Shown here piece after piece: positions 6,095 to 24,725 of a stretch of 64,000 nucleotides of DNA. The stretch is from Firmicutes bacterium CAG:882 (GTDB taxonomy: Bacteria > Bacillota > Clostridia > Lachnospirales > Lachnospiraceae), in contig FR895425.1 of assembly GCA_000435595.1 (NCBI GenBank), positions 14,273 to 78,272 of the forward strand, given 5' to 3'. The position numbers and the translations under genes are program-made. The stretch's first letter is position 1. The number at the start of each line of letters is the position of its first letter. Under the pieces are notes generated by a model that was not told the origin of the DNA, ran no database searches, and saw only the letters and a list, made by a program, of their open reading frames with translations.

Positions 6095-6436
6095 TTAATT
6101 TATTTCAAGCAGCTTGTTCACGGCTGATGTCATTTCAGGGTGTTCCCTCAGGGCAAGGATGACCTTTCTTTCGTATTCGGTGGCATTTATCGGAGTATTT
6201 TCCTTATATCCGAAGGTGCTTAAAATATCATCGACGTGATAGATTTCACACAGAACCAGCAGCGTGTCGGCATCAGGCTGTGCCTGACCGCTTTCCCATC
6301 CGTAGAGAGTCTTGTCGGCGACGTTTATTGATTTATCGGACAGCTTTACCACCACATCATGTACAGTCAAAGAATTCTTTTTTCTGAGCTCTTTTAAAAC
6401 TTTGGCTATCATCTCATTTTTCATAATTTCCTCCAC
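6095..6436 (-). CDS. XRE-family HTH transcriptional regulator (113 aa)
   Basis: N-terminal HTH_3-like segment MIAKVLKELRKKNSLTVHDVVVKLS...KTLYGWESG. Divergent from the ssp operon. Confidence 0.7.
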   Translation of the reverse strand: MEEIMKNEMIAKVLKELRKKNSLTVHDVVVKLSDKSINVADKTLYGWESGQAQPDADTLLVLCEIYHVDDILSTFGYKENTPINATEYERKVILALREHPEMTSAVNKLLEIN

Positions 6437-6706
6437 AAAACGGTATTATTCGTTTGAACAAATTTTTATAAATTTGGGTTAAAATTCTGTATTTATCATA
6501 ATATGAATGCTTTCCACAAAAGCGCGTATTTAAGCGGAAATTCAGGGAAAACATTATATTCTTATAATATCCCAGTGCATAATCAAGGTCAAACTATTCT
6601 TAGTATCACAGAATTATACTGTTGAAATTCTTATTAACAAAGACTATAATATAAGAAAGTTCTGTGAATTACAGAATACAGAATACATAATACTATAAGC
6701 AGAGAA
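6437..6706. promoter_or_regulatory. divergent promoter and operator region with repeated ACAGAAT/ATTCTGT motifs
   Basis: aaaattctgtattt at 6481-6494 and cacagaatt at 6606-6615. Perfect inverted repeat ttctgtgaattacagaa at 6660-6676. Tandem acagaatacagaatac at 6671-6686. TATAAT boxes at 6563 and 6644. Confidence 0.45.
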
Positions 6707-6916
6707 ATGGAGCTTTGCAGGGTGGACAGACATAATGTGACACAGCGGATATCACAGTATTTACAGGAGAATCATATATCGGTTGAACAGGTTGAACGTG
6801 ACCTTGGAATGGAGCGTGGCAGGCTGTCTTGTGCAAGCGGCATGGAGCTTGGGGCGGCGGAATTTCTTGAACTGTGCCATTATCTTAATGTCCCGCCTGA
6901 GAGCTTCAGAGGTTAA
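6707..6916 (+). CDS. small HTH (XRE/Cro-like) protein, 69 aa, first gene of the ssp operon
   Basis: ISQYLQENHISVEQVERDLGMERGRLS helix-turn-helix. Ends 13 nt before the sspD-like start. Size and position resemble R-M controller (C) proteins. Confidence 0.55.
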   Translation: MELCRVDRHNVTQRISQYLQENHISVEQVERDLGMERGRLSCASGMELGAAEFLELCHYLNVPPESFRG

Positions 6917-6929
6917 TACGGAGGAATGA

Positions 6930-8660
6930 ATGCGGCATTACAGATGCACATTGCACAACATAGAACTTAATAAAAATTACTGTGATGAATGTGAAAGCAG
7001 GGAGCATGTGGAGGTCACATCGGATATCTACTATTGTACGCATTGCAATGTACCGATTTACGAGGAAAAATGTCCGGTATGTCATGGGCAGTGCAGCAGA
7101 ATTGCGGCTGATGTCAGACCTGTATTTCCAAGGGAAAGGCTTTTGTATGAGATACTTGAGGGTGAACCGCTTAAATATCTTCACTCATCCGTGTGGAATG
7201 CAAGCGGCAATTATTACATGACAGATGGCGTGTTAAAGCGCTTTAATGTTGGAAGGCTCAGTAAGCTTTCACAGGAAGATATAGATAATATAAGAGAGCA
7301 GCTGGAGAAATATGAGAAGGCTAATGAGGATAATTCGTTTTCGGAGTACATTGAGCGTTTTACAAGCTGTAACAGTGCAAGATATGATGAGATAACACAG
7401 GAGGCTGTGAGCTATATTCAGGATATAGCGGCAGCCTATGATGTGAGGGACATGTTTGTGTCATTTTCAGGCGGAAAGGATTCGACCGTCACATCAGACC
7501 TTGTTATGAGAGCGTTAAGTAATCCAAGAATACTTCATATATTCGGGGACACAACGTTAGAGTTTCCTAAGACGGAGGAATATGTAGCGCGGTTTAAGAA
7601 GGCGCATCCTATGACGCCTGTTCTCTCATCAAGGAATAAGGAGAAGAATTTTTCGGAGCTGTGTGAGCTTATCGGACCGCCGAGCCGAGTGATGCGCTGG
7701 TGCTGTACCATTTTTAAGACGGGAGCAATCAACAGAAAGCTTACGGCACTCTTTAAGGATAAGACGAAGATACTGGCTTTTTATGGCATAAGGAGAAGTG
7801 AGTCAGCAAGCAGGAGCAAGTATGAGAGGGAGACGCAGGGGCGGAAAATATCCAAGCAGGATACGGTATCTCCGGCAATAGACTGGATGGATTTTGATGT
7901 ATGGCTCTATATTCTTAAGAGAAAGATTGATTTTAACGAGGCATACACATACGGCTATGCGAGAGTGGGGTGTTTTTGCTGTCCTAATAACAGCGTATGG
8001 TCTGAGTTTTTATCCAAGATATATATGCCTGAACAGTATGGCAGATGGCAGGAATTTCTTGTGGAATTTGCAAGGAGCATAGGAAAGCCGGATGCTGAGG
8101 AGTATGTAAGAAGCGGCAAGTGGAAGGCCAGACAAGGAGGCAATGGCATAGCCTACGCGGACAAGGCGGTTGTAAGCTTCACACCATGCGTTCTTGAGGA
8201 GAACAGTTTTAATTATGATTTATTAAGACCTGTAAGTGAGGAATTATATGAGCTTTTCAAGCCGTTCGGATATCTTGATTTTAATATGGGAAATGCCCGC
8301 CTTGGAGAGGTATACATTCTTAATAGACGGGGAACACCTCTTTTGAGACTTCAGGGAAGAACAGGGAGTACGCATCTTAAAATTACAATTCTCGACTACC
8401 ATATTGACAAGGCAAAGAGTGTTGAGAAGGCTGAGGAGAAGGTTAAGTGTCAGCTCACCAAGTATCAGTTGTGTATGGGATGCCGTGCATGTGAGGGCGT
8501 GTGCAGGCATGGAGCGATAAGGCTTGACAGCATGCCTGACGGAAGCACGGTTTATCACATAGATAATGAGAAATGTGTGCGGTGTGCTGAGTGTGTCAAC
8601 CATTTTAATTCAGGATGCTATATGAAGAAGGTGCTTGCGGTTAAGCGAAAACAGATATAG
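6930..8660 (+). CDS. sspD: PAPS-reductase-like PP-loop ATP pyrophosphatase (SspD/DndC-like) with N-terminal zinc ribbon and C-terminal 2x[4Fe-4S] ferredoxin
   Basis: PP-loop FSGGKDST. N-terminal CDEC..CTHC..CPVCHGQC. C-terminal CMGCRACEGVC and CVRCAECV...C ferredoxin motifs. Operon context with DUF4007, DUF499, cysteine desulfurase and DUF262/DUF1524. Confidence 0.7.
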   Translation: MRHYRCTLHNIELNKNYCDECESREHVEVTSDIYYCTHCNVPIYEEKCPVCHGQCSRIAADVRPVFPRERLLYEILEGEPLKYLHSSVWNASGNYYMTDGVLKRFNVGRLSKLSQEDIDNIREQLEKYEKANEDNSFSEYIERFTSCNSARYDEITQEAVSYIQDIAAAYDVRDMFVSFSGGKDSTVTSDLVMRALSNPRILHIFGDTTLEFPKTEEYVARFKKAHPMTPVLSSRNKEKNFSELCELIGPPSRVMRWCCTIFKTGAINRKLTALFKDKTKILAFYGIRRSESASRSKYERETQGRKISKQDTVSPAIDWMDFDVWLYILKRKIDFNEAYTYGYARVGCFCCPNNSVWSEFLSKIYMPEQYGRWQEFLVEFARSIGKPDAEEYVRSGKWKARQGGNGIAYADKAVVSFTPCVLEENSFNYDLLRPVSEELYELFKPFGYLDFNMGNARLGEVYILNRRGTPLLRLQGRTGSTHLKITILDYHIDKAKSVEKAEEKVKCQLTKYQLCMGCRACEGVCRHGAIRLDSMPDGSTVYHIDNEKCVRCAECVNHFNSGCYMKKVLAVKRKQI

Positions 8661-8662
8661 AA

Positions 8663-9577
8663 ATGAGGAACAGTATGTCAGAACAGACAGCTAAGAAGAT
8701 AAGACTAAAGGGACATGAGACATTTATATTGAGGGAAGGGTGGCTTGCTAAGGGTATAAGAGCTGTTGCTGATAATCCTAAGGTATTTTCCGTGTATTCA
8801 GGTGCGGATGCACTCGGCGTTGGAACTAATATGGCAAAGGCAATACGGTATTGGCTTAAGGCCGCAGGACTTATCGAAGAGACAAAAAACGGAGTGGAGC
8901 TCAGCGCATTCGGGAAGAATGTCATGACATATGATTCCTATTTTGAGGACAGATTTACGTTATGGATAATACATGCACATATTGCGTCGAATGCAGAGCT
9001 TGCAACGAGCTGGTATGTGTTTTTCAACAGAATAGGGTGTGAGGAGTACACGAGGGACGAGCTTGTGTACTCACTCAATCGTGAGCTGTGTGTGTATTCG
9101 GGCTTGCAGGAGCTGCCGGAGAGTTCTGTGTCAGCGGATGTGACAGCCATTATCAATATGTATTCGAGAGATAAGGGCAGAGATTATGACCCGGAGGAGA
9201 AGAAGCTGAGCCCGTTTGCGGAACTCGGACTTCTGAAGCGGGACAACAGGTATGTGAGAAAGCAGACACCTGTATCGGATGATGCACTTGAGTATGCGGT
9301 TCTGTATCTGTTAAGGAGATACTTTGAACAAGAGAAGACGGACAGCGTGAGCATAGATAAGCTCTTGACGGGAAGCGGACTTATGGGGCGTATATTTAAT
9401 CTCAACCGTGTGGAGCTCAATTTTTATCTTGATAAGCTCGCAGTAGATGAATATATCACTGTTAACAGGACTGCGGGACTTGATATGGTGTATTCTCTTA
9501 GGAATATGAGCGCGCAGGATGTAATAAGTGCATATTATAAGAACAGGCAGACACTTTTAAAAGATGAGGACAGGTAA
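8663..9577 (+). CDS. sspB: DUF4007-family protein (SspB-like, putative nickase)
   Basis: N-terminal GHETFILREGWLAKG motif that I associate with DUF4007. 304 aa. Starts 2 nt after sspD. Confidence 0.6.
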   Translation: MRNSMSEQTAKKIRLKGHETFILREGWLAKGIRAVADNPKVFSVYSGADALGVGTNMAKAIRYWLKAAGLIEETKNGVELSAFGKNVMTYDSYFEDRFTLWIIHAHIASNAELATSWYVFFNRIGCEEYTRDELVYSLNRELCVYSGLQELPESSVSADVTAIINMYSRDKGRDYDPEEKKLSPFAELGLLKRDNRYVRKQTPVSDDALEYAVLYLLRRYFEQEKTDSVSIDKLLTGSGLMGRIFNLNRVELNFYLDKLAVDEYITVNRTAGLDMVYSLRNMSAQDVISAYYKNRQTLLKDEDR

Positions 9578-9586
9578 GGACAAGAT

Positions 9587-12500
9587 ATGCTTAAGGATAT
9601 GGTTAAGATAGATAAGAGATTTGAAAATTCAATTAATCTCTACCTTGATATAGATAACAGGAATAAGATAGACAGCTATGTGTATACGCGCTCATCGCAG
9701 AACATAATGGACTATTATCTGGACAATATAGATAACGATAGGAATCATGCGACAATGCTCATCGGACCTTACGGCAAGGGCAAGTCACACATGCTTCTGG
9801 TTCTTCTTGATAAGGTGAGAAGTATGGAACATCCATACCTCCCGATAATAATATCCGGCACGGGGGATGACCTCAATCAGGTATTTCTTATAGGACTTAC
9901 CGACGCGCTTAAGAGGGCACGGCTTGAAAAGCTTGCACCTGAGAGCTATTACAGCGAAGCCGCAAGGCGTATCGGGCAGTGGAAATGTGATTTTCCCGAT
10001 GCGTATGATAGATTCAAGGCAGAACTTCATAAGCTTGGCATAGGCAGCGTCGATGATTTTACCAGGGAGCTTGGCAGGCAGTCGAAGAAAGCACTTGGCA
10101 TGTTTGAGCAGATATACCCTGTTATAACAAGCGGCAGTGAATTCAAGCCGTTTCTGATGGTCGAGACGGTGAGAATATATGAGCAGATAAGGGATGTGCT
10201 TGCGAGGGAGTATGGATATTCGGGTCTTTATATTATTTTTGATGAGTTCAGCAAGTACGTCGAGGGGCATGAGAAGGACACATTCGCTAAGGATATGAAG
10301 GTGCTGCAAGATATGTGTGAGCTGGCGGGAAGAAGTGGTGACGGAAGAATATATCTCACCTGCGTTGCACACAAGAGCATCAAGGAGTACGATGCTAAGC
10401 TCTCCGGCGAGATGAAGAACGCATTCAGAGGTGTAGAGGCAAGGCTTGATGAGGTGAGATTTGTTGTTTCCTCACAGAACAATTACGAGCTCATAGGAAA
10501 TGTAATCAGGAAGGACAATAATGCTTTAAAAAGAATCCGTAGAATTGAGCGGTATTACCAAAACGCTATAAAGTCCTATAGCTTTTCATGTTTTTCGGGA
10601 CTTTTTGATGAGGACGATTTCAGAAAGTATGTTGTTGAGGGATGTTTTCCTCTTATGCCTCTCACGGCATACATGCTTTTACATATAAGTGAGAAGGTTG
10701 CACAGAATGAGAGAAGCATATTCACGTATCTGTCGCACGACGAGAAGGGAAGTCTGTGCAGGATAGTGGAGGAGTGTACCCTTGATGAGGCAGATTACGG
10801 TGTCACGGCGGATACAATATATGATTATTTTAAAAGCCTTTTCAGGGCTGACGGCACGGATGCACTCATACACAACGAATGGCTCAAGGCAGAGTATGCA
10901 CTTGAACGTGCAGAGGATGAGGATGAAAAGAAAGTAATCAAGGTTATAGCACTTATAGGCATAATAGACAGACCTGATGAGGTATCGGCGGACATGGAGC
11001 ATATCGCATGCTCCCTCAATATTACTTCAGAGGAATGCAGTGCGATAATGGACAGACTTGTGGAGCGCAAGGCGGTTATTTACCGCAGGAGAAAGCATGC
11101 TTACTGCTTCTATAACAATGTGGGGGTTGACATTCAGGCGGAAATTGCTGGCAGAGCGGCGAAGCTTCCAGCAGATGCGGATATTCTCGGAACATTGAAG
11201 AGCATATCAGAACTTGATTATGTTCTTCCGAAGAAATACAATCAGGATTTTTCGATGACAAGGTACTTTGAGTATGTGTTCATGACACCTGAGCAGATAA
11301 GCAGGCTCCCTAAGCCGTCTGTGCTTTTTGAACAGCGTTTCTCCGACGGAAAAATTGTTGCGGTTGTGTCTGAACAGCCTGTAGAGTACGATGAGCAGCT
11401 TTTTGAAAGACTTAACGATAAGAGAATAGTGGTGCTTGTGCCGCAGATGGTATTCAATCAGACGGACAATATAAGAAAATATATAGCGGCAAGGGAGCTT
11501 ATCAAGGATAAGGCGTTTATCGATGAGAACGCAGTGTTAGAGCAGGAGCTTGTCAATTATTGTGATGATGCAGCTTACGAGGTGAACAGATACTTAGAGG
11601 AGGCATTTGACACAGAAAGCGGAATGTGCCGGGTATATCATGCCAATGAGAAATATGCCGGAGGTTTCAGACATTCAATGACATTTAACATGTTTTTGAG
11701 CAGCATAATGATGGATTATTATGACAATGCGCCTATTGTCAACAACGAGCTTATAAACAGACAGAACATATCTGCACAGAACAAAAAGGCAAGAAATAAG
11801 ATAGTGGATATGATTTTGTCCAATGCTGACTGCTCGGAATTTCTGAAGGGAACATCGCCTGAATCAACCATATATAGGGCTGTCCTTGTTAATACAGGAG
11901 TATGCGGAGGCGGAAATATTGAGTCCGGCTGTGAGCGTGTCATTATGGAAATCGACCGCTTCATTGCACAATGTGATGACAACAGATGCTCATTCAAGGT
12001 TCTGTATGACAGAATTATGGGTATGGGATACGGAACAAGAAAGGGAATAATCCCAATATATATATCACTATGTCTTTCAAGACTGCATGATAAGCCGGTG
12101 CTGAGCTTTAAGGAGAAGGAAGTTGAACTTGACTCGGGCACACTTGGCAATGTAAATGACGCCCCGGGGAACTATTATCTGTATGTGGAGCACAAAAGCA
12201 TAGAGAAGCAGAATTACATTAATGAATTAAAAAAGCTCTTTGGTGCAGGCACCGGGCAGGATGATGACAGAGGTGTTCTTACCGGAATACTCAGATGGTT
12301 CAGGGCTCTGCCGCAGGCGGCATCCAATATAGGAAGGGATGCACGATGTGATGAGAACATGGCGGCTAAGCTTAAGAAGCTGTGCAGTATGCTGAGACGT
12401 CAGGATTACAACCCTCATGATTTCCTTTTTACCGAACTTCCTGCAGGGGTAGGGGCAGACAAGGGAGATTATGTATCGGCGATAGATGAACTCGTCAGGT

Positions 12501-13057
12501 TAAAACAGTTTCTCGACCACTATCTCGAGAATGTTTCATCCGAGGCGGCTTCAATTATAAAGCGCAGATGTGGTGCGGACGAGCAGGACAGCTTGAGAGC
12601 GGTTCTTGACGGTTATAATGCAAGATATACAGGACAGCGTAAGGACATTATTTTAAATCGACGCACACAGTCAATCGTAAGGTACATTTACGGACTGTCT
12701 ACATTCGATGACGCAGAGATTGTGTCGGGATTATCTAAGCTCGTCACGGATATATATATAGATGACTGGCGCGACGGAATGCTTGAGAACTTTAAAAGAG
12801 GCTGGAATGAGTTCTGTGATGAAATCGAGAGTGAACATTCCGCCGGAAGCGGCACCGGGATAGAAAAGCTGCTCCTGGAAGGTCAGGATCAGAACCTGCT
12901 TGACGGCAGTGACACAGACGACAACAGCACAAGCTATTTTTTAAAGAATGCAATAAGGGAAGCAATAGATGAGTTCGGTGACAGCCTTGATACCAAGGAG
13001 AAGGTCGCCGTGCTTGCGAGAGTGCTCGCCGAGCTTGTCGCCGGAGAAAATACATAG
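9587..13057 (+). CDS. sspC: large P-loop ATPase, DUF499/BrxC-like (SspC-like)
   Basis: 1156 aa. Walker A GPYGKGKSHMLL matches the G-x-Y-G-x-GKSH loop of DUF499 ATPases. Lies between the DUF4007 and cysteine desulfurase genes. Confidence 0.6.
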   Translation: MLKDMVKIDKRFENSINLYLDIDNRNKIDSYVYTRSSQNIMDYYLDNIDNDRNHATMLIGPYGKGKSHMLLVLLDKVRSMEHPYLPIIISGTGDDLNQVFLIGLTDALKRARLEKLAPESYYSEAARRIGQWKCDFPDAYDRFKAELHKLGIGSVDDFTRELGRQSKKALGMFEQIYPVITSGSEFKPFLMVETVRIYEQIRDVLAREYGYSGLYIIFDEFSKYVEGHEKDTFAKDMKVLQDMCELAGRSGDGRIYLTCVAHKSIKEYDAKLSGEMKNAFRGVEARLDEVRFVVSSQNNYELIGNVIRKDNNALKRIRRIERYYQNAIKSYSFSCFSGLFDEDDFRKYVVEGCFPLMPLTAYMLLHISEKVAQNERSIFTYLSHDEKGSLCRIVEECTLDEADYGVTADTIYDYFKSLFRADGTDALIHNEWLKAEYALERAEDEDEKKVIKVIALIGIIDRPDEVSADMEHIACSLNITSEECSAIMDRLVERKAVIYRRRKHAYCFYNNVGVDIQAEIAGRAAKLPADADILGTLKSISELDYVLPKKYNQDFSMTRYFEYVFMTPEQISRLPKPSVLFEQRFSDGKIVAVVSEQPVEYDEQLFERLNDKRIVVLVPQMVFNQTDNIRKYIAARELIKDKAFIDENAVLEQELVNYCDDAAYEVNRYLEEAFDTESGMCRVYHANEKYAGGFRHSMTFNMFLSSIMMDYYDNAPIVNNELINRQNISAQNKKARNKIVDMILSNADCSEFLKGTSPESTIYRAVLVNTGVCGGGNIESGCERVIMEIDRFIAQCDDNRCSFKVLYDRIMGMGYGTRKGIIPIYISLCLSRLHDKPVLSFKEKEVELDSGTLGNVNDAPGNYYLYVEHKSIEKQNYINELKKLFGAGTGQDDDRGVLTGILRWFRALPQAASNIGRDARCDENMAAKLKKLCSMLRRQDYNPHDFLFTELPAGVGADKGDYVSAIDELVRLKQFLDHYLENVSSEAASIIKRRCGADEQDSLRAVLDGYNARYTGQRKDIILNRRTQSIVRYIYGLSTFDDAEIVSGLSKLVTDIYIDDWRDGMLENFKRGWNEFCDEIESEHSAGSGTGIEKLLLEGQDQNLLDGSDTDDNSTSYFLKNAIREAIDEFGDSLDTKEKVAVLARVLAELVAGENT

Positions 13058-13073
13058 AATCGGGGAGATACAG

Positions 13074-14231
13074 ATGAGTGTAATTTACCTTGACAATGCA
13101 GCGACCACCTATCCAAAACCGGAGGGTGTCTATGAACAGATGGATAAAGTCAACCGCAGTCTGGCGTTTAACGCCGGACGTGGTTCTTATGCTCTGGCGC
13201 AGCAGTCGGCAGTTATCATTGACAATCTCAGAAGAGAATTATTGCGCATTGCGAATGCGATGAATGTAGCAGAGGTCGTACTGTCGGCTTCTGCTACATT
13301 TGCATTGAATCAGATAATCGGCGGACTGGGTATGAGGGCGGAGCAGTATGTGTATATATCGCCTTATGAGCACAATGCCGTTGTTAGAACACTTTACAAT
13401 CAAAAAATATACAGAGATGAAGAGAACTGCACGCATATTATTGTCATGCCTCTTCTGCCGGACGGGGGAATCAATGAGGAAAGGCTTCTGTACGAATTCA
13501 GCATACACACACCATCGTTCGTGTTCATGAGCAATGTGAGCAATGTAACCGGTTACATCCTTCCTGTGGAGAGGATTGCGTCCGCAGCCAAGGCATACGG
13601 TGCCACCGTTGTCGTAGACGGCTCACAGGCATTAGGCCTTGTTCCTTTTGACATGTCGGCATCAGACGTGGATTTCTATGTGTTTGCCGGACACAAGACA
13701 CCTTACGGTCCGTTCGGAATCGGCGGTTTCTATATGAAAAACGGAAGGAACCTCGACACATTCATAGCAGGCGGCACAGGAACAGATTCTCTCAATGTCG
13801 GCATGCCGCTCGCGGGTACGGTACGTTATGAACCGGCAAGCCCGAATGTCATAGCGGCAGCAGGGCTGCTTGCCGCTGTAAAAGAACTCACGACAGATGA
13901 GATAGCACACCGCCTGGAGCATGAGAAGAAACTTACTGAATATCTTGTAAACGGAATGCGCAAGATACCGGGCATCAGGCTGTATCTTGCGCCTGCACAG
14001 TCGCATGTCGGAATAGTCGCTTTCAATCTTGCGGGCTACAAGGCCTCCGACATCGGAATGATTCTCGATGCGGATTACAATATTGCGGTTCGCACAGGCT
14101 ACCACTGTGCTCCGCTTATACATGAATATTTGGACGACAGAGAATACCTTGGAGTTGTGAGAGCAAGCATAAGCATGTTCACGGGTTATGATGAAGCGGA
14201 TGCGCTGGTCGAGGCACTGGGGGAGATTTAG
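13074..14231 (+). CDS. sspA: cysteine desulfurase (class V aminotransferase, SspA/DndA/IscS-like)
   Basis: MSVIYLDNAATTYP N-terminus and PLP-lysine region FAGHKTPYGPFGIGG. GGGGAG RBS before the ATG at 13074. The ORF track starts earlier, at 12969, inside the sspC 3' end. Confidence 0.8.
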   Translation: MSVIYLDNAATTYPKPEGVYEQMDKVNRSLAFNAGRGSYALAQQSAVIIDNLRRELLRIANAMNVAEVVLSASATFALNQIIGGLGMRAEQYVYISPYEHNAVVRTLYNQKIYRDEENCTHIIVMPLLPDGGINEERLLYEFSIHTPSFVFMSNVSNVTGYILPVERIASAAKAYGATVVVDGSQALGLVPFDMSASDVDFYVFAGHKTPYGPFGIGGFYMKNGRNLDTFIAGGTGTDSLNVGMPLAGTVRYEPASPNVIAAAGLLAAVKELTTDEIAHRLEHEKKLTEYLVNGMRKIPGIRLYLAPAQSHVGIVAFNLAGYKASDIGMILDADYNIAVRTGYHCAPLIHEYLDDREYLGVVRASISMFTGYDEADALVEALGEI

Positions 14232-14243
14232 GAGGATGAGAAG

Positions 14244-16535
14244 ATGGATTTAAAGTTTGCAGAGATAAGAAATATTAATCAGTTATGCAATTTAGAAAGT
14301 AAAGGAAATAACAATGAAAATGTACCGCTGAATGTAAATATTCCATATTACCAGAGACCATACAAATGGGATAATACAAGAATTGGTAATCTAATTACAG
14401 ACTTTTATGATAATGAAGAAAATGAGAATGAAGATGAGGGATATTTTGCTGGTTCGGTTGTTATGGTTAAAGGAGAAAGCGGAAGATTTGAGGTTATTGA
14501 CGGGCAGCAGAGAATCACGACACTTTTTTTAATGAATTATCTGAGATTTTTGCTTATTAGAGGATATATTGAGCTGATAATAAAAACCAAAAAAATGTCT
14601 AAAATCAAGACACAAATTGATGAGCTTATTGATACAGCGGTTAATTTGTTTGATAAGGAAAAAATTATAAAATTACGTAATGTAAGCAGTGGAATAGATA
14701 ATTATATCAGCGATATTGAAAATGATGGACATGATGCTGAAAAAAAGGACAGCATATGGGATGCATTACTTGAATATTACGAGAAAGAATTAGGTTTGCC
14801 AAAGAGAAATTTTACTAATATTGAAAGTTATAAAAGGGAATGTTATCTGGAAAACAAGAAATTTCTGGCGAATGTAGGACTGACACTAAGGTACAGTAGA
14901 AACAGTTACAATGAAAAGCTTAAAGAAGCTTTATGCAGAGCTGTAATACTAATGCAGAGTGATGATATCAATCCGTGTTTTACAATGTGTTGTTTTGAGA
15001 AAAATTCAGTGTTTAAGAGTGTAGTAACAGAACAATATATGAATGCTATGAAATATATATATGATAATATTGTCACCGCATATATAGTCGGTGAAGAAAA
15101 ACCGGTTGAGTATATTGTAAAGCTAGAAAATGCAATGAAAAATATATTGGATAATATTAATTTTTGCGTTGTGGTTACGGGCAGAGAAAAGGATGCATAT
15201 ACATTATTTGAGGTATTAAATGATAGAAATTTCCCGGTTGAAGATTTGGAATTAATTAAGAATCTTTTTTACAAATATTACTGTAAAAATAGCGAAAACA
15301 ATGATAACACGGATTATTTCATTGAAAAGGCGGATACAAAATGGGGGGAAATATTTAGTGACACAATAGGCAAGGAACAGTCAAAACTTATTTCATATCT
15401 TGCTGCACAATATTTTACAGCGGATGGAAGACTCAAGTACAATGATAATGAGAGATATAGGGAGGCAATAGAAAAACAATACCTGAACAGAAAACAGCGA
15501 TATGATGGAGAAGCATTGTTAAGTGATATATGTGTTTATGAAATGCTTGAAATTATATTAGATGAATTTGATTTTAAATATCAGAAAAAAGCTGAAAATG
15601 TCATAAAAGCAGAGAGAGAAAATTCAAAATCAATTACATACAAAGCGTTAAATTTGTTCAATGCACTTAAATTGTACGGAGTAATACCTGCAATTACCAA
15701 TATTATACTTAAGAAGTTTTTGGAAAAAAATCCTATTAACAGATGGACTGGTGGGGATTATATTACTGCATTTAGAAAGTATGTACAGGAAATAAGGGAT
15801 GACAGAGAAAATAACAATACAGATTTTGCGGAGATTCACAGTGTAGCTTATGATTTCTGGCGTTTTGCACTGCTTGCACAAAATTCGGACAAACCAAGAA
15901 ATATAGCAAAAGACTATATCTCGAAAAATTATGTATCAAATTCTGACTATTCTTTAAAAGTCACAAGTCAGGAAGCAGATGTGTTGAATGAAGAGTTCAG
16001 AAGATGGATTAACGCATGGAAATATGGAAATGAAATTTCCCAGCTGAAGGTTAAAGTACTTTTTATTAATTTATTTAATTCAACTAAAGAGGGAAATACA
16101 CTTATATTCAACAAAACCGGCACAAATTTTAAAACGGATAAAATACAGCTTGATCATTTAGAGCCGGATAAAACCAATGCAGTTGCAAGTGAAAAGTATT
16201 TTGAACCTTCATCTAAGCTGCCAAGAGAAACATATACCGATAGTCTCGGTAATTTCATGATTATGGATGCAGGCAGTAACAATGACAAGAACACAATTCC
16301 GTTGCAGGATGCTCTTGAAATTTATGATAATATGGCTGGTGGTCATTGGCTGATAAAAGAAATTCATGACCTGTTTTATGAGAATGAATGTGGTGTAGAT
16401 AAGAACATTGATGGAAAAAAATACAGAATTCCGAATGAAGAATTTTTCATCAGAAGAAAAAAGAGATTGATATGTTATTTTAAGGCTATTTTGACTAAAA
16501 AGCTTGGCGATAATAAGGTGGAATTTGAACAGTAA
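14244..16535 (+). CDS. sspE: DUF262 (ParB-like NTPase, DGQQR motif) plus C-terminal DUF1524/HNH-like nuclease; SspE-like PT-sensing restriction protein
   Basis: RFEVIDGQQRITTLFL in the N-terminal domain. C-terminal QLDHLEPDK His-Me finger-like motif. 763 aa. Directly follows sspA. About 28-30% GC. Confidence 0.75.
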   Translation: MDLKFAEIRNINQLCNLESKGNNNENVPLNVNIPYYQRPYKWDNTRIGNLITDFYDNEENENEDEGYFAGSVVMVKGESGRFEVIDGQQRITTLFLMNYLRFLLIRGYIELIIKTKKMSKIKTQIDELIDTAVNLFDKEKIIKLRNVSSGIDNYISDIENDGHDAEKKDSIWDALLEYYEKELGLPKRNFTNIESYKRECYLENKKFLANVGLTLRYSRNSYNEKLKEALCRAVILMQSDDINPCFTMCCFEKNSVFKSVVTEQYMNAMKYIYDNIVTAYIVGEEKPVEYIVKLENAMKNILDNINFCVVVTGREKDAYTLFEVLNDRNFPVEDLELIKNLFYKYYCKNSENNDNTDYFIEKADTKWGEIFSDTIGKEQSKLISYLAAQYFTADGRLKYNDNERYREAIEKQYLNRKQRYDGEALLSDICVYEMLEIILDEFDFKYQKKAENVIKAERENSKSITYKALNLFNALKLYGVIPAITNIILKKFLEKNPINRWTGGDYITAFRKYVQEIRDDRENNNTDFAEIHSVAYDFWRFALLAQNSDKPRNIAKDYISKNYVSNSDYSLKVTSQEADVLNEEFRRWINAWKYGNEISQLKVKVLFINLFNSTKEGNTLIFNKTGTNFKTDKIQLDHLEPDKTNAVASEKYFEPSSKLPRETYTDSLGNFMIMDAGSNNDKNTIPLQDALEIYDNMAGGHWLIKEIHDLFYENECGVDKNIDGKKYRIPNEEFFIRRKKRLICYFKAILTKKLGDNKVEFEQ

Positions 16536-16556
16536 TTAAAAAAGGAGGCAGTGTAA

Positions 16557-16707
16557 TGCAAAAACCCGACGAAAGATTATTGAAGACCGTCATGTTTGAA
16601 ATACTTCATCTTGAACGGAAAAATCTCAGAAGCAGAGCAATGACGGATCAGAAAATGGTGGAGGAGATTGGGAAGGTTATCTCGGAGAATATTAAGCTAT
16701 GTAAATA
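16557..16707 (+). CDS. small hypothetical protein (50 aa) coupled to the downstream ATPase
   Basis: Strong RBS AAGGAGG 7 nt before the ATG at 16557. TAA stop abuts the next ORF. Not in the ORF track because it is under 60 aa. Confidence 0.4.
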
Positions 16708-16728
16708 ATGGAGGCGGAGAGGGTACGA

Positions 16729-18768
16729 ATGAAGTTTAAAACACTCAGAATGAAGAATTTTATGCGTTATAAAGGAATAAATGAGATTAATTTCAGTTGT
16801 GACGAAACGCATAATGTTACGGTGATATTGGGGGATAACACTGTAGGAAAAACAACGATTGCTCAGGCGTTTAGATGGTGTCTGTATGGTGCGATTATGG
16901 CTGAACGCGGAAAGAAAGAATCAGATTATCAGCTTCTGAACAATGATGCGCTTGCAAAACTGGATGCCAATAAGAAAGCTTCTGTTTTTGTGGAGATAAT
17001 AGCCGTGGATAGCGAAAGGCTGTATACCATCCATCGTGAAGTTGAATATATGAGGGTGTATCCTAAGTTCATTGCAAAAGAGTCATACAAGACATTGAAA
17101 ATGTTTATTTCAGATATAGACAGTCCTGATATCAGGCGTGAGGTGGAGCCCGGACCTAATTACAATAAGATAAATGAGCTTATAAATGAACTGTTTCCTA
17201 AAAATCTTTCACATTATTTTCTGTTTGATGGTGAGAGATGGAGTGATTTTTCGATAAATGGTGTCAGGGAGAACATTAAAGAATCAGTACATATTTTAAC
17301 CGGACTTTCTGCCTACAAGTCCGCCATGTATCATCTGAAGGATATGGGAGACAATTCAGTTATAAAAAAGTTCAGAAAAAATATTCAGGGAAAAGGCAAT
17401 GTGTATGATGATTATGAGCGTGAGCAGACCAGACTTGAACGTGAAGTGGAAAAATTACAGAAACAGATAGAAAGTATCGATGCCAATATCAGTCTTTGCA
17501 ATAAAAAATGCGATGAGATAGAGTTATATCTTGAGGAAAACAAGGATACGGAACAACTGCAGACGGCATATAAACAGTCTCAGAGAATGCTGAGGGCACA
17601 GGGGGAGAGATACTTAGCCAACTATAAAACTTTTATTTCGGAATACAATTCATGTGCATACAGACTGTTCGCCGGACCGCTTATCGAGGCTTCATTAAAA
17701 ATGGTCAAATCTGTGGCAGGTGAGCGCAGGGATATTCCACACATGAGGCAGGCGAGCATTGATTATATAATCAGAAGCGGAAGATGCATCTGCGGGACAC
17801 CGATAACGGAGGGGTCGTATGCTCTCGAATGCCTGCTCGAACAGAGAAATTATCTTCCGCCTGCCGATATGGGTTCTCTGCTCGGAGAATTTGAAAAGAC
17901 CGCTAACCGATGGAAAAGGGTTGATGACGAACTGCCAGACGATGCGGCAAGGGTTGATGAGAGCGCAAGGGATTATGAGGAGACAATCATTCAGCTTCAG
18001 AAAATGGAAAATAAGATGAATGAGAATATCGATTTTGCAGAGAAGAGAGCACAACTTAGGAGATATAAGGATGAAGCAAACAAGGCTGCAGTGAAAAAAG
18101 GTGAGATAAAGGGACTCATATCATCATATCAGACTCGAATACAGAGTATAGAACTCCAGATGAAGAATCAGGAAATAAAGAATGCCGAAAATGAAAAATG
18201 GAGAAACAAGCTGGGGCTTGCGGAGGCTGTATACGATAAATTATCAGCGGATTTTTCGGAGCGGGAGAAAAAGATATTTTACGAATTGAATGAAGAAATT
18301 CAGGCGAATTTTTCGCGTATGTTCAATGCGAAAGATAAAAGAATCCGGCTCTCGGAAAACTATGAAATTCAGATGTGCTATAAGACCGACATAGGCTATC
18401 AGGAAGAAAAGAACCTGTCGGAAGGAGAAAAGGTAGCAAGAAATTTTGCATTTATTGTGACAATAATGGATTACAGCACACGAAAGAAGAATGAGTATAA
18501 TAAAGCTGACTCAATCGTTGAGGATAAGGATGATGATTGCAATGATGCGCTTCCTATTGTGCTTGATGGACCATTCTCAAAACTCGGCGAGGAAAATATC
18601 TCTCTGGTGGCAAATGTGCTTCCGAAGGTATCGGAGCAGGTCATAGTATTTATGCTCAGAAAAGACTGGGCGTACACGGGACTTGATGAGTATGTCGGAG
18701 CGGAGTACTCGATTGACAAAAATCCTGAAGAAAGCTTTGCGTCGATAAGAAAGGTGGACAGAGGCTGA
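16729..18768 (+). CDS. SMC/DndD-like ABC ATPase (AAA_23 N-terminal head, coiled-coil middle, C-terminal head)
   Basis: N-terminus MKFKTLRMKNFMRYKGINEINF...ILGDNTVGKTTIAQAFRWCLYG (Walker A). Long charged coiled-coil middle. C-terminal LPIVLDGPFSKL (Walker B/D-loop). 679 aa, like DndD. Confidence 0.7.
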   Translation: MKFKTLRMKNFMRYKGINEINFSCDETHNVTVILGDNTVGKTTIAQAFRWCLYGAIMAERGKKESDYQLLNNDALAKLDANKKASVFVEIIAVDSERLYTIHREVEYMRVYPKFIAKESYKTLKMFISDIDSPDIRREVEPGPNYNKINELINELFPKNLSHYFLFDGERWSDFSINGVRENIKESVHILTGLSAYKSAMYHLKDMGDNSVIKKFRKNIQGKGNVYDDYEREQTRLEREVEKLQKQIESIDANISLCNKKCDEIELYLEENKDTEQLQTAYKQSQRMLRAQGERYLANYKTFISEYNSCAYRLFAGPLIEASLKMVKSVAGERRDIPHMRQASIDYIIRSGRCICGTPITEGSYALECLLEQRNYLPPADMGSLLGEFEKTANRWKRVDDELPDDAARVDESARDYEETIIQLQKMENKMNENIDFAEKRAQLRRYKDEANKAAVKKGEIKGLISSYQTRIQSIELQMKNQEIKNAENEKWRNKLGLAEAVYDKLSADFSEREKKIFYELNEEIQANFSRMFNAKDKRIRLSENYEIQMCYKTDIGYQEEKNLSEGEKVARNFAFIVTIMDYSTRKKNEYNKADSIVEDKDDDCNDALPIVLDGPFSKLGEENISLVANVLPKVSEQVIVFMLRKDWAYTGLDEYVGAEYSIDKNPEESFASIRKVDRG

Positions 18769-19289
18769 TGGCTGATTTTGAATTTTTTAAAAAGCAGTTT
18801 GAATTTAAAGGAAAGCACTCAAGAATGGTGTCTGAACTTTGTGTTGCTAATGATTTTGAGCATACATTTTTTAGAAGGATTATTGACGTGTATGTATTTG
18901 CAGCAATAATAGGTATCCGTCTTGACAGAAAAGCTTCGGAAGATTATTCACCGGTGGAGACAAAAAGTATTTTTCCGGAGCAGATGATAAATGCCAAGGA
19001 AGACTTGGATTTCATAATGCAGATGATGATAATGTTAGATTCGGGTCCGGGAACTACTGCTGAGGACAGAGTAAGGGAAGCCTTTAGAGGTGCACAGACT
19101 AAGGAAGAGTATGACAGGCTGATGGGAATTTTCAATGACTATGTGAGAGGTGGAGTTGAAGAACTTTACGAAAGACTTGTTGTCAGAAAGCCTGATTCGG
19201 ATGGCGGATACTACGACGAAAGAACCGCTAATCTTATGGCGCTTTATGATAGGCTTGTTCCGAGGAATATTTCAAAAATCACAAAATAA
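18768..19289 (+). CDS. hypothetical protein (173 aa), translationally coupled to the DndD-like ATPase
   Basis: TGATG stop/start overlap with the upstream gene. No motif I can recognise. Predicted mostly helical. Confidence 0.5.
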   Translation: MADFEFFKKQFEFKGKHSRMVSELCVANDFEHTFFRRIIDVYVFAAIIGIRLDRKASEDYSPVETKSIFPEQMINAKEDLDFIMQMMIMLDSGPGTTAEDRVREAFRGAQTKEEYDRLMGIFNDYVRGGVEELYERLVVRKPDSDGGYYDERTANLMALYDRLVPRNISKITK

Positions 19290-19328
19290 TGCTTTACTTT
19301 TTTAAATATGTGGGGTATAATAAACATA

Positions 19329-19445
19329 CGTTATATCATACCAAGCGATAAACGGTTACAACAATAAGGTCCCGCCGCTGGCGGTGTACCTCAAAGCTCT
19401 AATCCCACTTAAAGTGAATACTTTAAGTGGGATTATCTATTTTAA
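19329..19445 (+). ncRNA. tracrRNA: tracrRNA (anti-repeat, nexus-like hairpin, terminal hairpin, T-run)
   Basis: ttatatcataccaagcgataaacggttacaacaa is 31 of 34 identical to the CRISPR repeat on the same strand. It is followed by taaggtcccgccgctggcggtgtacc (hairpin) and aatcccacttaaagtgaatactttaagtgggatt (hairpin), then ctatttt. TATAAT at 19316-19321 sits about 8 nt upstream. Confidence 0.7.
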
Positions 19446-19634: not shown

Positions 19635-22600
19635 ATGGAGGAAATGAAGCAGACAGGCAGAAAAAATGAAGCACCTAAGCTGACGGATTTGAATTACAGA
19701 ATTGGGCTTGATATTGGTATTGCTTCTGTAGGCTGGGCGGTGCTTGAGAACAACTCTCATGACGAGCCGTTCAGGATTATTGATTTGGGTGTCAGAATTT
19801 TTGATACCGCAGAGCAGCCTAAGACGGGTGCATCACTAGCACTTCCAAGGAGGGAAGCACGTTCAGCAAGAAGGAGAATAAGAAGGCGCAGGGACAGGAT
19901 AGAACGCATCAAGAAGCTTTTTCAGGCTGAAGGGCTTATAAATATCGATGAGTTTGAGGCTCGTTACAAAATAGCAGGACTTTCTGATGTTTACAAGCTG
20001 AGATATGAGGGGCTTGACAGGAAGCTTACAGATGATGAACTGGCACAGGTATTATTACATATTGCAAAGCACAGAGGATTTAAGTCGACAAGCAAGGCAG
20101 AAGAAGCGGAAAACGAAAATGACGCAGCAAAGAAAAAAGAAGCAGGGGCTTTAAAGAAGGGTATAAGCAATAATAAAAAGCTTATGGAAGAAAAAGGATA
20201 CAGGACGGTTGGAGAAATGATGTATCTTGATGAAAACTTCCGTACAGATTGTCCATGGAATGAAAATGGCTACATACTTACACCTCGCAATAAGTCCGGC
20301 GATTATAAGCATACCGTTTTAAGAGATATGCTTGTAGATGAAGTAAGAGAGATATTTAAGTCTCAGAGAAGTCTTGGAAATATTCACGCTTCCGAAGAAC
20401 TTGAGAATGCATATCTTGATATTATGCTCAGCCAGCGTTCATTTGATATGGGACCGGGTGCTCCGAGCAAGTATGCGATGGAGGGATTTGAGGACAGAGT
20501 AGGATTATGTACCTTTGAAGGTAAGAATGGTGAGAAGCGTGCAGCAAAGGCAGCATATACCTCAGAACTTTTTGTGGCATTGGAGAAGATAAATCACACC
20601 AAGATTGTGAGTGATGATGGAGCCACAAGATTTTTGACGACGTATGAACGCAAGAGCATTATTGAACTTATGCATAAGCAGCAGACTGTAAAGTATGCGG
20701 CAGTGCGTAAGGCGATTGGCTTAGCGGAGGAGGACAAATTCTACAACCTTAACTACAGTCCGAAGGCTGGAAGCAAAAAGTCTCCTGAAGATACAGATTT
20801 TGTTAAACTTGAAAACTATCATAAGATACGCAAGGCTCTTGGAGAAGACATAGTTTCAGAACATTTACCTGCTGAAAAGATAAAGCTGTATGACAGTATT
20901 GCAACTATACTTACACTGTTCAAGAATGATGACAGCCGAATTAAGAGATTTATCGAACTGGGGATTGGTGAGGAATGCTTTGACGGGCTCCTTTCATTAT
21001 CACCAAGCAAATTTCATAACCTTTCTCTGGTTGCAATGGGGAAGATAATTCCGTTTTTGCTTGATGGCAACACCTATGACAAGGCATGCGAACTCGCAGG
21101 GTATGATTTTAAGGCAGATAATAAAGGCGAGAAGTCTGTTCTGCTGAAAGGAAAAAATATAACGGATATGGTGAATGATATTACCAATCCGGTTGTGAGA
21201 CGTTCTGTATCTCAGACAATAAAGGTTATAAATGCAATTATACTTGAGTATGGAAGTCCGCAGGCGGTTAATATTGAGCTTGCAAGGGAAATGTCAAAGA
21301 ACTTTGATGAAAGACGAAAGCTCAAGTCTGATATGGAATCACGCGAAAAAGAAAACAATAATGTCATAAAGCGTGTAAAAGAATATAAGCTGAATCCAAC
21401 AGGTCAGGATATAGTTAAGTTCCGCCTCTGGGAGGAGCAGGACAGAAGATGCTTATATTCAGGTGAGAAGATTGATATAAATGACCTTTTTTCAAGAGAT
21501 GGCGGTTATGACGTTGACCACATTCTTCCGTACAGCATCACATTTGATGATACATATCGCAATAAAGTACTTGTAAAAGCATCTGAGAACAGGCAGAAGG
21601 GAAACAGAACACCTTATGAGTATTTTATGGCTGAGAAGGATGATGATGAATGGAATGTTTACGAGACTTTGGTTCGAAATACAGTCAAAGATTATAAGAA
21701 GGTGCTCAAGTTACTCAAGAAACATATAACAGAGGATGAAAAGAGCGAATTTAGGGAGCGAAATCTTACTGATACAAAATATATTACCAGAATCATCTAC
21801 AATATGATACGTCAGAACCTTGTGTTAAAACCATATCTTAGTCTTGAAAAAGAACGCAAGAAACAGGTCATGGCTGTAAATGGTTCCATAACACACTATC
21901 TCAGTAAGAGATGGGGACTTGAAAGCAAGGATAGACGTACAGACACACATCACGCACAGGATGCAGTTGTCATCGCCTGTACAACTGATGGAATGATAAA
22001 TAAAATATCGCGATATTCCAAGGGACGAGAGCTACTTTATTCAAGAGGCTTTAAGTTTGTAGATGAAGAAACAGGGGAAATACTTTCGCGCGATAATTTT
22101 ACCCGTGAGGAGTGGGACGAGAAGTACGGGGTGAAAATCCCTATACCGTGGGAACATTTCAGGGATGAGCTTGATATCCGTATGTCAAGGTACAACGGAA
22201 CAGGTGATGACTCAATCGACAAAACAACGCCGAGGGATTTTATTTTGTCACACAGGGATGCGCACAAATGGATAAATTACCCTGAGTGGATGTTTGTCGA
22301 AGGAAGACCGGGACGTAGAGGAGTGCTCGACGGAATTTTTGTTTCCAGAATGCCGAAGCATAAAGTGAGTGGTCAGGCACATGAGGAGACGGTTCGCTCG
22401 GCGAAGTATTATAATGATGGTGGCAGTGTATTTGAGAGTGGTGGATATGTAGTTACCAAAAAATCAATTCAGGACATCAAGCTAAAAGACGGGGAGATAA
22501 AGGAGTTCTTCAATCCGGACAGCGACAGATTACTTTATAACGCTTTGGTTGACAGACTTAATAAATTTGAAAACGATCCAAAGAAGGCTTTCGCGGAGCC

Positions 22601-24080: not shown

Positions 24081-24393
24081 ATTTATGAGATTGTTGGTGT
24101 TTTTTGATTTACCTGTTGTTAAGGACAGAGATAGAAAAGTTGCTGCTAAATTTCGCAGATTTCTTCTGAAAGATGGATATGTTATGGTTCAGTGGTCAGT
24201 ATATTCGAGACTTTGCAATGGTACGGATTCTATCGAGACTCATAAGCAAAGATTAAAGCAGAATTTACCGCATAAGGGGTCTGTGCGTTGCCTTGTATTG
24301 ACGGAAAAACAATATTCGTCCATAGATATTCTTTTAGGAACGTCTACATTTCATGATATGGATGAATCATCTGATTTAATAAATATTTTTTGA
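24073..24393 (+). CDS. cas2: Cas2
   Basis: 106 aa. Overlaps cas1 by 8 nt. MNKFMRLLVFFDLP N-terminus typical of Cas2. Confidence 0.9.
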   Translation: MNKFMRLLVFFDLPVVKDRDRKVAAKFRRFLLKDGYVMVQWSVYSRLCNGTDSIETHKQRLKQNLPHKGSVRCLVLTEKQYSSIDILLGTSTFHDMDESSDLINIF

Positions 24394-24592: not shown

Positions 24593-24725
24593 CGACAAGA
24601 GACCCTTTTGTGAAAGATTAGTTTACATTTTTGTTGTAAATCTTTTTTTTTTGTATTAGAATAAAATAGATGTAAAAATATAGTAAAGAAGAATATAAGA
24701 AAACAAGAAATGAGGACGTTTTGTT

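Follow-up and report, generated by a model that had tools for sequence, protein, structure and literature searches.

A gene cluster in the genome of Firmicutes bacterium CAG:882 raises the question of what its genes do together and where the system to which they belong ends. The cluster lies in a 64-kb stretch of contig FR895425.1 (GCA_000435595.1), here called the window, and all coordinates below are window positions. A reading made from the letters of this DNA alone (the original prediction) had described five co-directional open reading frames (ORFs) encoding a phosphorothioate (PT) modification and restriction system of the SspABCD-SspE kind. We have followed up this prediction with profile searches, structure models and comparisons of related loci, and have found that the five genes belong to a nine-gene operon in which three genes similar to pbeB, pbeC and pbeD stand last. 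We propose with moderate confidence that the locus is one PT-based restriction-modification operon, a composite of an Ssp module, a DUF262/HNH nickase and a PbeBCD-like trio.

Organization of the operon

The nine genes form a single operon at ~6622-19435, with one strong promoter and one strong terminator, and their spacing ranges from a 1-nt overlap to 20 nt. The five predicted ORFs, for which gaps of 2-17 nt had been given, were all present, with gaps of 2 nt (D to B), 9 nt (B to C), 16 nt (C to A) and 12 nt (A to the DUF262 gene), and the motifs quoted for them (FSGGKDST, GHETF..REGWLAKG, GPYGKGKSH, DGQQR and LDHLEP) were all found in the translations. The boundary drawn around five genes was too narrow, as the transcription unit also takes in a gene for a 69-amino acid (aa) protein, which ends 13 nt before sspD, and the PbeB/PbeC/PbeD-like trio, reached through gaps of 20 nt and 20 nt and then a 1-nt overlap. 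The genes are the following.

6707..6916, + strand: 69-aa protein, encoded first in the operon and also called on public contigs of identical sequence
6930..8660, + strand: SspD-like, BrxP-type PP-loop ATP pyrophosphatase, 576 aa (Pfam PAPS_reduct 2e-32, Fer4_7 7e-07)
8663..9577, + strand: SspB, DUF4007 protein, 304 aa (Pfam DUF4007 2e-89 over the full length; PADLOC SspB 1.5e-55)
9587..13057, + strand: SspC, ORC/Cdc6-STAND-type ATPase homologous to BrxC, 1156 aa (PADLOC SspC 3e-107, BrxC 5e-31)
13074..14231, + strand: SspA-equivalent cysteine desulfurase, SufS-like group II, 385 aa (Aminotran_5 1e-64)
14244..16535, + strand: SspE/DndI-like protein, DUF262 (DGQQR nucleoside triphosphatase, NTPase) plus a predicted C-terminal HNH-type nickase, 763 aa (GmrSD_N, DUF262, 8e-27)
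16556..16708, + strand: PbeB-like small protein, 50 aa (ribosome-binding site and ORF; called on public contigs)
16729..18768, + strand: PbeC-like CxC-type ABC ATPase, 679 aa (PADLOC PbeC 1.9e-84 over the full length, DndD 1.9e-27; AAA_23 9e-17)
18768..19289, + strand: PbeD-like protein (dnd_assoc_4/DndE cognate), 173 aa, its start codon overlapping the PbeC stop by 1 nt

Identical copies of the 576-aa SspD-like sequence are present on at least 22 public contigs, human-gut metagenome contigs among them, and the nearest genome records are metagenome-assembled genomes of uncultured Clostridiales, Eubacterium and Lachnospiraceae. According to this, and to the Pfam and PADLOC profiles and the synteny described below, the core of the original prediction was sound: an Ssp-type PT modification gene set with a DUF262/HNH partner in a Clostridia host from the gut.

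A PbeBCD-like trio with an interchangeable nuclease slot

In Pbe systems, PbeA is a fusion of an HKD nuclease and a superfamily 2 (SF2) helicase, PbeB is small and fast-evolving, PbeC belongs to the CxC ABC ATPases and PbeD is cognate to DndE (PMC10853773); pbeB, pbeC and pbeD are needed for antiviral activity, and deletion of pbeA leaves weak protection (PMC6459918). The last three genes of the operon resemble the last three members of this set. The 50-aa protein is homologous to the small ORFs located between PbeA and PbeC in related loci, with which it has the motif E-x-x-N-L-[RK]-[ST]...D-x-x-M in common. The 679-aa ATPase has a coiled-coil insert with a CICG zinc hook, and this hook (C353-I-C355-G), the Walker A motif and the Walker B/D-loop residues are invariant in nine homologues. 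The gene for the 173-aa protein always follows the CxC ATPase gene in related loci. PbeA itself, with its HKD (phospholipase D, PLD) nuclease and SF2 helicase, is absent from the window, and the DUF262/HNH gene stands in that slot.

We have ruled out that the trio is a decaying remnant left by the loss of PbeA. Between two PbeA-less loci the dN/dS ratio was 0.043 for the PbeC-like gene, 0.067 for the PbeD-like gene and 0.085 for the PbeB-like gene (0.04-0.09 overall, with intact catalytic motifs), and 0.065-0.095 for the ssp genes, so that purifying selection on the trio is strong even where PbeA is missing. Together with its conserved adjacency, this means that the trio is functional and tied to the ssp module; it does not follow that it acts jointly with the DUF262 nickase.

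The adjacency was followed in metagenomic loci retrieved with the CxC ATPase, which are the best 80 of 511 matches. In 43 of these loci the upstream DNA extends for at least 9.5 kb, and 39 of the 43 have the complete sspD/B/C/A set directly upstream of the CxC ATPase block. The position that separates sspA from the small ORF is filled by PbeA in 25 loci and by a DGQQR protein in 16, and the PbeA of this slot is bona fide (PADLOC ~1e-225; Pfam PLDc_2, ResIII and Helicase_C). The two kinds of loci correspond to two ATPase sub-clades, the PbeA-type having 27-36% identity to the window ATPase and the DUF262-type 43-91%. In the PbeA-less sub-clade, a DUF262 gene occupies the slot before PbeB in 16 of the 18 loci with full upstream sequence, and the occupants belong to at least three families that cannot be aligned with one another: that of the window, a 615-630-aa family similar to HEC-06/Orf5 and a 722-813-aa family similar to HEC-05/PDC-M55C.

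The exchange of the slot gene can be seen within one species. In a metagenomic locus with a 100% identical SspD (L006), the DNA is 96.8% identical to the window up to position 14246, at the start codon of the slot gene; the slot of L006 (8623-10485 of that contig) then holds an unrelated 620-aa DUF262+DUF1524 gene, and identity is only 75% through the PbeBCD-like genes that follow. The GC content of the DUF262 gene of the window (~33%, versus 42-48% in the ssp genes) is consistent with a recent replacement of this cassette.

It is possible, and we put it forward tentatively, that in one sub-lineage of gut Clostridia the DUF262/HNH nickase has replaced PbeA as the effector of a Pbe-type complex working on an Ssp/BrxP module and not on a Dnd one, in which the ATPase-DndE pair would scan the PT status of DNA and license a nickase that can be readily swapped.

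The DUF262/HNH protein

The gene in the slot was examined in a survey of one genome per species, with the DUF262 protein alignment as query, and the window proteins were then mapped on the retrieved loci by tblastn. The DUF262 gene lies directly 3' of sspA in the window, as it does in over 15 Clostridial genomes, and its product belongs to a large family of 740-790 aa. P-x-YQRPYxW, DGQQR, DAYTLFEVLNDR and a C-terminal D-H...G-N...N motif are invariant in this family; the residues are Y36-Q37-R38, D86-G-Q-Q-R90, D637-H638, N670 and N679, the DGQQR motif being invariant across 17 family members.

The original prediction had likened this protein to SspE. By profile and fold it groups with SspE and DndI, but its sequence is distant from the characterised SspE and, by profile, is nearer to DndI. 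PADLOC gave Orf5 8e-25, HEC-06 3e-24 and SspE 1.4e-11, and the 763-aa sequence alone barely matched solved SspE (E 0.05). The family profile searched against the Protein Data Bank (PDB) matched DndI (9JFL) with 4e-16, in three segments that include the HNH region, versus 1.4e-07 for SspE (6JIV), in the N-terminal ~70 residues only. When the AlphaFold model (pLDDT 86) was compared with the PDB by Foldseek, the order was different, with SspE first (7DRS 5e-10, 7DRR 1.8e-09), then DndI (9JFL 2e-08) and BrxU (5e-03); the C-terminal domain of SspE also came ahead of BrxU, a generic GmrSD enzyme. Full-length TM-scores were low (0.32-0.53, the highest target TM-score being the 0.53 of DndI), as would be expected of multidomain proteins with mobile domains.

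Full-length homologues with 29-31% identity adjoin canonical sspB/C/D genes in Gammaproteobacteria (Pseudoalteromonas, Marinospirillum, Ignatzschineria and Vibrio) and give the same PADLOC pattern, with HEC-06/Orf5 above SspE. From these ssp-adjacent homologues, the profile and the fold, we file the 763-aa protein as a third branch of PT-associated DUF262/HNH nickases, and it is predicted to be the PT-sensing restriction effector of the operon. The idea that it is a Pbe-only gene, not SspE-like, was ruled out: in about ten Clostridial loci, as well as in Gammaproteobacteria, it is linked to ssp modules that lack Pbe genes. Mechanisms of PT sensing are described for SspE and DndI in PMC9646914 and PMC11662687. 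The PT-sensing tyrosine of DndI, Y25 in its P-x-YQR motif, aligns with the invariant Y36, and Y36-Q-R is thus a putative hydrophobic PT-sensing patch. In the absence of PT, SspE is inactive, whereas DndI shows constitutive activity and toxicity (PMC11662687).

A predicted sulfur-inserting enzyme of BrxP type

The SspD-like protein is the predicted sulfur-inserting enzyme. Its domains are, in order, zinc ribbons, a helical/alpha-beta region, a PAPS (3'-phosphoadenosine 5'-phosphosulfate) reductase core with SGGKDS and conserved CC and CxCC cysteines, an alpha+beta domain for which the Pfam scan found nothing, and a ferredoxin-like domain for two [4Fe-4S] clusters. PADLOC scored it as BrxP (1.5e-79) versus SspD (7e-12) and DndC (2e-10), and residues 57-573 align to positions 23-516 of the 779 of the BrxP model, the N-terminal zinc ribbons lying outside the aligned part and being conserved within the Clostridial family. 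Compared with a canonical SspD (302 aa, from the ssp locus of Vibrio anguillarum; PADLOC SspD 1e-125), the identity is 26% over 117 aa in the PP-loop core. The protein is therefore best regarded from its sequence as a functional analogue from a paralogous clade rather than as an orthologue of canonical SspD.

The N-terminal cysteines are C6 and the pairs C18/C21, C36/C39 and C48/C51. At the C-terminus, a tandem CxxCxxCxxxC ferredoxin had been proposed; the first motif fits (C515-x2-C518-x2-C521-x3-C525), but the second is not strict (C549-x2-C552-x2-C555-x7-C563). Family members with as little as 41% identity share the PP-loop and 16 other cysteines without exception, and this invariant set comprises SGGKDS, C258/C259, C348/C351, the cysteines C36, C39, C48 and C51 of the second zinc ribbon, and the eight that make up the two 4Fe-4S motifs; C6, C18, C21, C245, C350 and C420 are nearly invariant. 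The best solved-structure matches of the AlphaFold model (pLDDT 74.7) are PAPS and APS (adenosine 5'-phosphosulfate) reductases and the [4Fe-4S] PP-loop sulfurtransferases TtuA, NcsA and LarE.

The zinc ribbon and the ferredoxin had been thought unusual. That the elaboration is rare or novel was ruled out by the size of the BrxP-type family, with at least 6451 matches at E<=1e-5 (one Eubacterium sequence alone being on 985 contigs) and at least 400 clusters at E<=1e-30 in an exhaustive search of a 50%-identity library, and by its description in the literature, where an extra alpha+beta and Cys-rich 4Fe-4S region is reported for BrxP and "a subset of SspD" (PMC12839542, 2026). Most family members are 520-590 aa long. 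About a dozen of the top 150 clusters are 767-846 aa, and in the two best of these long relatives (P0269 and P0309, 32-37% identity) PAPS_reduct, Fer4 and DUF4007 are fused.

SspB, SspC and SspA

It had been left open that the 304-aa and 1156-aa proteins might fall in unrelated families, and the profile searches placed them in SspB/DUF4007 and SspC. SspB also matches positions 518-774 of the 779 of PADLOC BrxP (1.2e-12), and by this homology it appears to be the DNA-binding and nicking target-recognition subunit, equivalent to the C-terminal half of BrxP. SspC matches positions 158-1048 of the 1054 of its PADLOC model and carries a Walker A motif (GPYGKGKSH) and a Walker B motif (IIFDEF). The desulfurase ORF extends over 12969-14231, and its true start is likely 13074, following the gene calls on identical public contigs. 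It has the lysine for pyridoxal phosphate (GHK) and the catalytic cysteine loop RTGYHCAP, and scored 1.5e-93 with TIGR01977 and 1.7e-65 with SufS versus 6e-19 with DndA (PADLOC SspA 1.4e-34). In Ssp systems a dedicated desulfurase of this kind is dispensable and can be replaced by IscS.

The Pfam families expected for the five proteins were obtained in the case of PAPS_reduct, DUF4007, Aminotran_5 and DUF262 but not in two others: the ATPase gave no match to PF04465 (DUF499), its only Pfam matches being sub-threshold ones to PF19557 and PF10923 (BrxC-PglY_N, BrxC_BrxD), and PF07510 was not matched by the 763-aa protein.

Gene order and its relatives

The order D-B-C-A-E had been taken as shuffled, and it is the standard of the lineage, shared by dozens of genomes and metagenome contigs of gut Clostridia. 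With a divergent helix-turn-helix (HTH) gene in front, the arrangement HTH(-)/sspD/sspB/sspC/sspA/DUF262 is present in ~15 Clostridial genomes; DUF262 identities go down to 32% and SspD identities to ~41%, and sspD-B-C-A is also the order of the metagenomic loci retrieved with a downstream CxC ATPase. As the arrangement is kept across many divergent genomes, a rearrangement peculiar to one genome was ruled out.

The BrxP of type 4 bacteriophage exclusion (BREX) systems is an SspD-SspB fusion followed by BrxC, a homologue of SspC (PMC12914056). As the SspD-like protein and SspB cover successive parts of the BrxP model, the order D-B-C is collinear with BrxP and then BrxC, and together with the fused relatives this indicates that the window carries the unfused form of BrxP-BrxC.

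In one Bacillota metagenome-assembled genome (L021, 10001-20116), the DUF262 gene precedes the ssp module (E-D-B-C-A), so the position of the effector is not fixed. In a Eubacterium one (L014, 5508-9951), three additional genes stand between sspA and the DUF262 gene, encoding a 576-aa SF2-helicase-like, a 597-aa and a 298-aa PLD-like protein, and may be another inserted defence module.

Proposed mechanism

The PT chemistry, the target motif and the physical or functional coupling of the nickase to PbeBCD are what we infer in the following scheme. The SufS-like desulfurase would take sulfur off cysteine, forming a persulfide, and the BrxP-type PP-loop/Fe-S enzyme, using ATP and its Fe-S clusters, would activate this sulfur and insert it into the DNA backbone at sites chosen by SspB together with the SspC ATPase. 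The product would probably be a single-strand mark of the C-PS-C/C-PS-A type. [quoted passage not shown] C*CA and C*AG have been found in an unclassified gut Clostridiales genome (PMC11931770). The view that the system is poorly characterised in Clostridia has been overtaken, as the ssp systems of gut Clostridiales have been surveyed and CpsC has been measured in ssp-carrying gut isolates (PMC12914056).

On the restriction side, the DUF262/HNH protein may read PT through its conserved YQR hydrophobic patch; PT sensing would alter the DGQQR NTPase activity and set the state of the HNH nickase, with nicks made in phage DNA that lacks the modification. The CxC ATPase and its DndE-like partner may scan or loop DNA, and the PbeB-like small protein could be a modulator, in line with a proposal made for Pbe systems (PMC10853773). 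In the sub-lineage of the window, the trio would work with the DUF262 nickase, which occupies the slot of PbeA in sister loci.

Alternative explanations

Several observations weigh against the reading of the locus as one composite system, and they lend themselves above all to another one, in which a five-gene SspDBCA-SspE-like system and a PbeA-less PbeBCD trio, alone or with a nuclease encoded elsewhere, are independent modules that use the same PT mark without cooperating. The ssp-DUF262 genes occur without Pbe genes in the available downstream DNA of about ten Clostridial loci. The DGQQR protein is present in only 5 of 40 PbeA-type loci, the other 35 having ssp-PbeABCD without it, and PbeA and a DGQQR protein co-occur in L012, L019 and four others. 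In another locus (L093, 6265-10134), the slot holds no nuclease gene, and sspA is followed directly by the PbeB-, PbeC- and PbeD-like genes. Thus ssp-DUF262 and Pbe are separable elsewhere, and their adjacency may mean two effectors on one modification module, not one complex; SspE and SspFGH indeed share one SspBCD module additively (PMC8092258). Moreover, the sample of metagenomic loci, being the best matches, is biased toward the clade of the window; the PT assignment of this organism and of its sub-lineage comes by homology, not chemistry, and would be made through an SspD-like protein only distantly related to canonical SspD (the 26% over 117 aa given above). The C-terminal HNH domain gave no PF07510 (DUF1524) match, even at E<=10 for its 204 aa alone, with PF07510 being present in several full-length homologues and the HNH-type residues invariant in the family alignment; and the PbeD-like assignment comes from sub-threshold profile matches (TIGR04062 3e-06, below the curated cutoff; 15 of 24 family members match this model), the family profile having found no solved DndE in the PDB. 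However, the DUF262 gene precedes PbeB in the 16 of 18 PbeA-less loci already mentioned, PbeB, C and D are strongly purified by selection without PbeA, and all the genes stand in one operon with 20-nt gaps. In addition, the protection that PbeBCD of Haloterrigena gave in the absence of PbeA stayed below 10-fold (PMC6459918), so a trio without a nuclease would be weak when standing alone. On balance we regard independent modules as less likely, and the composite system remains the reading that we prefer.

The other alternatives change the role of single components. The PbeC/PbeD-like pair could belong to the modification side and help to select or prepare the sites of sulfur insertion, as DndD and DndE do; PbeC and PbeD are paralogous to these modification components (PMC10853773) and the CxC clade nearly always adjoins an ssp module. 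We consider this improbable, because many loci have the same ssp module without PbeC/D, the roles of DndE and DndD are already filled by SspB and SspC (PMC10853773), BrxP, BrxC and a host desulfurase are enough for PT in Bacteroides (PMC12914056), and the dnd genes of Haloterrigena alone gave PT-modified virus, protection needing the pbe genes (PMC6459918). It is still harder to see in the operon a reduced type 4 BREX with brxP split in two, instead of Ssp. The BrxP score of its PAPS reductase (versus that for SspD), the order D-B-C matching BrxP-BrxC and the fused relatives at 32-37% identity would agree with this, but PglZ (BrxZ) and BrxL are both missing from the operon and from the 64-kb window, where the other large ORFs were covered, on which ground membership of type 4 BREX was rejected; the defining core of that type is brxPCZL (PMC12914056), and the SspC score of the ATPase is well above that for BrxC. 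We give an equally small chance to the PP-loop/Fe-S enzyme making a DNA or RNA modification other than PT: SspD and DndC, which have been studied biochemically, are distant from it, its best NCBIfam matches are uncharacterised archaeal PRK13795 proteins and its structural neighbours include tRNA thiolases, but its gene is in tight linkage with those for SspB, SspC, a cysteine desulfurase and nucleases of the PT-sensor type, and the related BrxP is genetically needed for PT synthesis (PMC12914056).

Comparison with known systems

The composite operon shares parts with four described systems. With SspABCD-SspE (Vibrio cyclitrophicus FF75, Escherichia coli 3234/A, Streptomyces yokosukanensis) it has in common a cysteine desulfurase, SspB (DUF4007), the ATPase SspC, a PAPS-reductase-like PP-loop enzyme and a predicted DUF262/HNH effector; SspE is the best fold match of the DUF262 model, and DUF262 homologues flank canonical sspBCD in Gammaproteobacteria. 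It differs in the order D-B-C-A-E, in the SspD of BrxP type (576 aa with zinc ribbons and 2x[4Fe-4S], whereas canonical SspD has ~280-300 aa), in the SufS-like desulfurase, in the added PbeBCD-like trio and in the restriction of the SspE profile match to the N-terminal ~70 residues.

In the case of type 4 BREX (brxPCZL of Bacteroides salyersiae; PMC12914056, PMC12839542), the likeness lies in a PAPS reductase with the alpha+beta and Cys-rich 4Fe-4S region, in the succession of PAPS reductase, DUF4007 and a BrxC/SspC-type ATPase, and in a cysteine desulfurase that is often linked. However, the PAPS reductase and DUF4007 are separate genes in the window, there is neither PglZ (BrxZ) nor BrxL, the ATPase is closer to SspC models and the restriction side is made of DUF262/HNH and PbeBCD.

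DndCDEA-PbeABCD (Haloterrigena jeotgali; PMC6459918, re-annotated in PMC10853773) has, like the window, a small protein, a CxC zinc-hook ABC ATPase and a DndE cognate (in the window a putative one), in the same order and 3' of a PT module, and the sister loci of the window have bona fide PbeA; the module of the window is of the Ssp/BrxP and not the Dnd type, and PbeA is absent, with the DUF262/HNH gene in its slot. Finally, IscS-DndBCDE-DndI (Salmonella enterica Cerro 87; PMC11662687; PDB 9JFL) provides the best solved-structure match of the DUF262 profile, with Y25 of DndI aligned to Y36 and DGQQR conserved, but DndI has 596 aa and pairs with double-strand PT of the Dnd type, and the 763-aa protein has a longer helical middle region and an Ssp-type module.

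The five-gene set is thus a member of a known and common lineage, and both of its supposed oddities, order and SspD elaboration, are explained. What is apparently undescribed is the systematic coupling of a Pbe clade to Ssp/BrxP-type modification and, within it, a sub-clade in which interchangeable DUF262 nickases replace PbeA. The SspDBCA-E-PbeBCD composite was not found in the searchable literature; the 2020 classification of ABC ATPases or the supplementary tables of PMC12914056 may list a linkage between Ssp and CxC ATPases. A 2025 review places pbeABCD with Dnd only, and PT defence is now sorted in fixed pairs, in which Dnd goes with DndFGH, DndI or PbeABCD while Ssp goes with SspE or SspFGH; type 4 BREX counts as a PT system of its own. 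The window locus and its ~60 relatives point to a whole Pbe clade dedicated to Ssp/BrxP-type modification in abundant human-gut Clostridia, in which PbeA and several unrelated DUF262 nickases can take each other's place in the nuclease position of the Pbe module. Should the coupling prove real, these loci would amount to a natural experiment in the cooperation of a DNA-scanning ABC ATPase/DndE pair with different nucleases, and would help to explain the sspBCD clusters seemingly without a restriction partner (84% in an earlier survey; PMC8092258). The "long SspD" of Clostridia, as an unfused BrxP, ties Ssp to the evolution of type 4 BREX.

Regulatory elements and genomic neighbourhood

Three further features frame the operon.

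6095..6436, - strand: XRE-type HTH regulator, 113 aa, divergent from the operon (Pfam HTH_31, HTH_3 and HTH_19, ~2-4e-05)
6596..6677, no strand assigned: promoter region with operator-like repeats, in the interval that separates the operon from the divergent HTH gene
19400..19435, + strand: intrinsic terminator, a 16-bp stem followed by a T-rich tail, upstream of cas9 (terminator scan)

In the promoter scan, the best sigma-70-like promoter of the region was at 6622-6650 (+ strand, 11/12 matches), and the terminator at 19400-19435 is the strongest terminator-like site 3' of it. Three repeats of ~18 nt, similar to ATTCT-N9-AGAAT and spaced by 31-32 nt, overlap this promoter (direct family D1; inverted pairs I3/I4) and look like operator sites, a regulatory role that their sequence suggests. 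A scan of the window for tandem repeats gave nothing. The XRE-type HTH gene keeps its position and orientation in most Clostridial loci, with 43-93% identity, and its product is a candidate repressor of the operon. Homologues of the 69-aa protein are found in the same place in some related loci (36-65% identity) and it has no Pfam match; it is possibly a small DNA-binding regulator, the HTH reading being a mere impression from its sequence.

The operon is harboured in a defence island of ~19 kb, bordered by ilvN/ilvC on one side and by a Na/Pi cotransporter gene on the other, and the remainder of the window carries housekeeping genes. Upstream of the island there is a gene for an AAA_14/DUF4143 ATPase (1694-2995), and a recombinase fragment lies nearby on related contigs (L001, 4188-4505). 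Directly after the operon comes a type II CRISPR-Cas system, with cas9 at 19635-23162, cas1 at 23178-24080 and cas2 at 24073-24393. The array that follows cas2 has just two 36-nt repeats (24491-24535 and 24557-24601), and therefore holds a single spacer.

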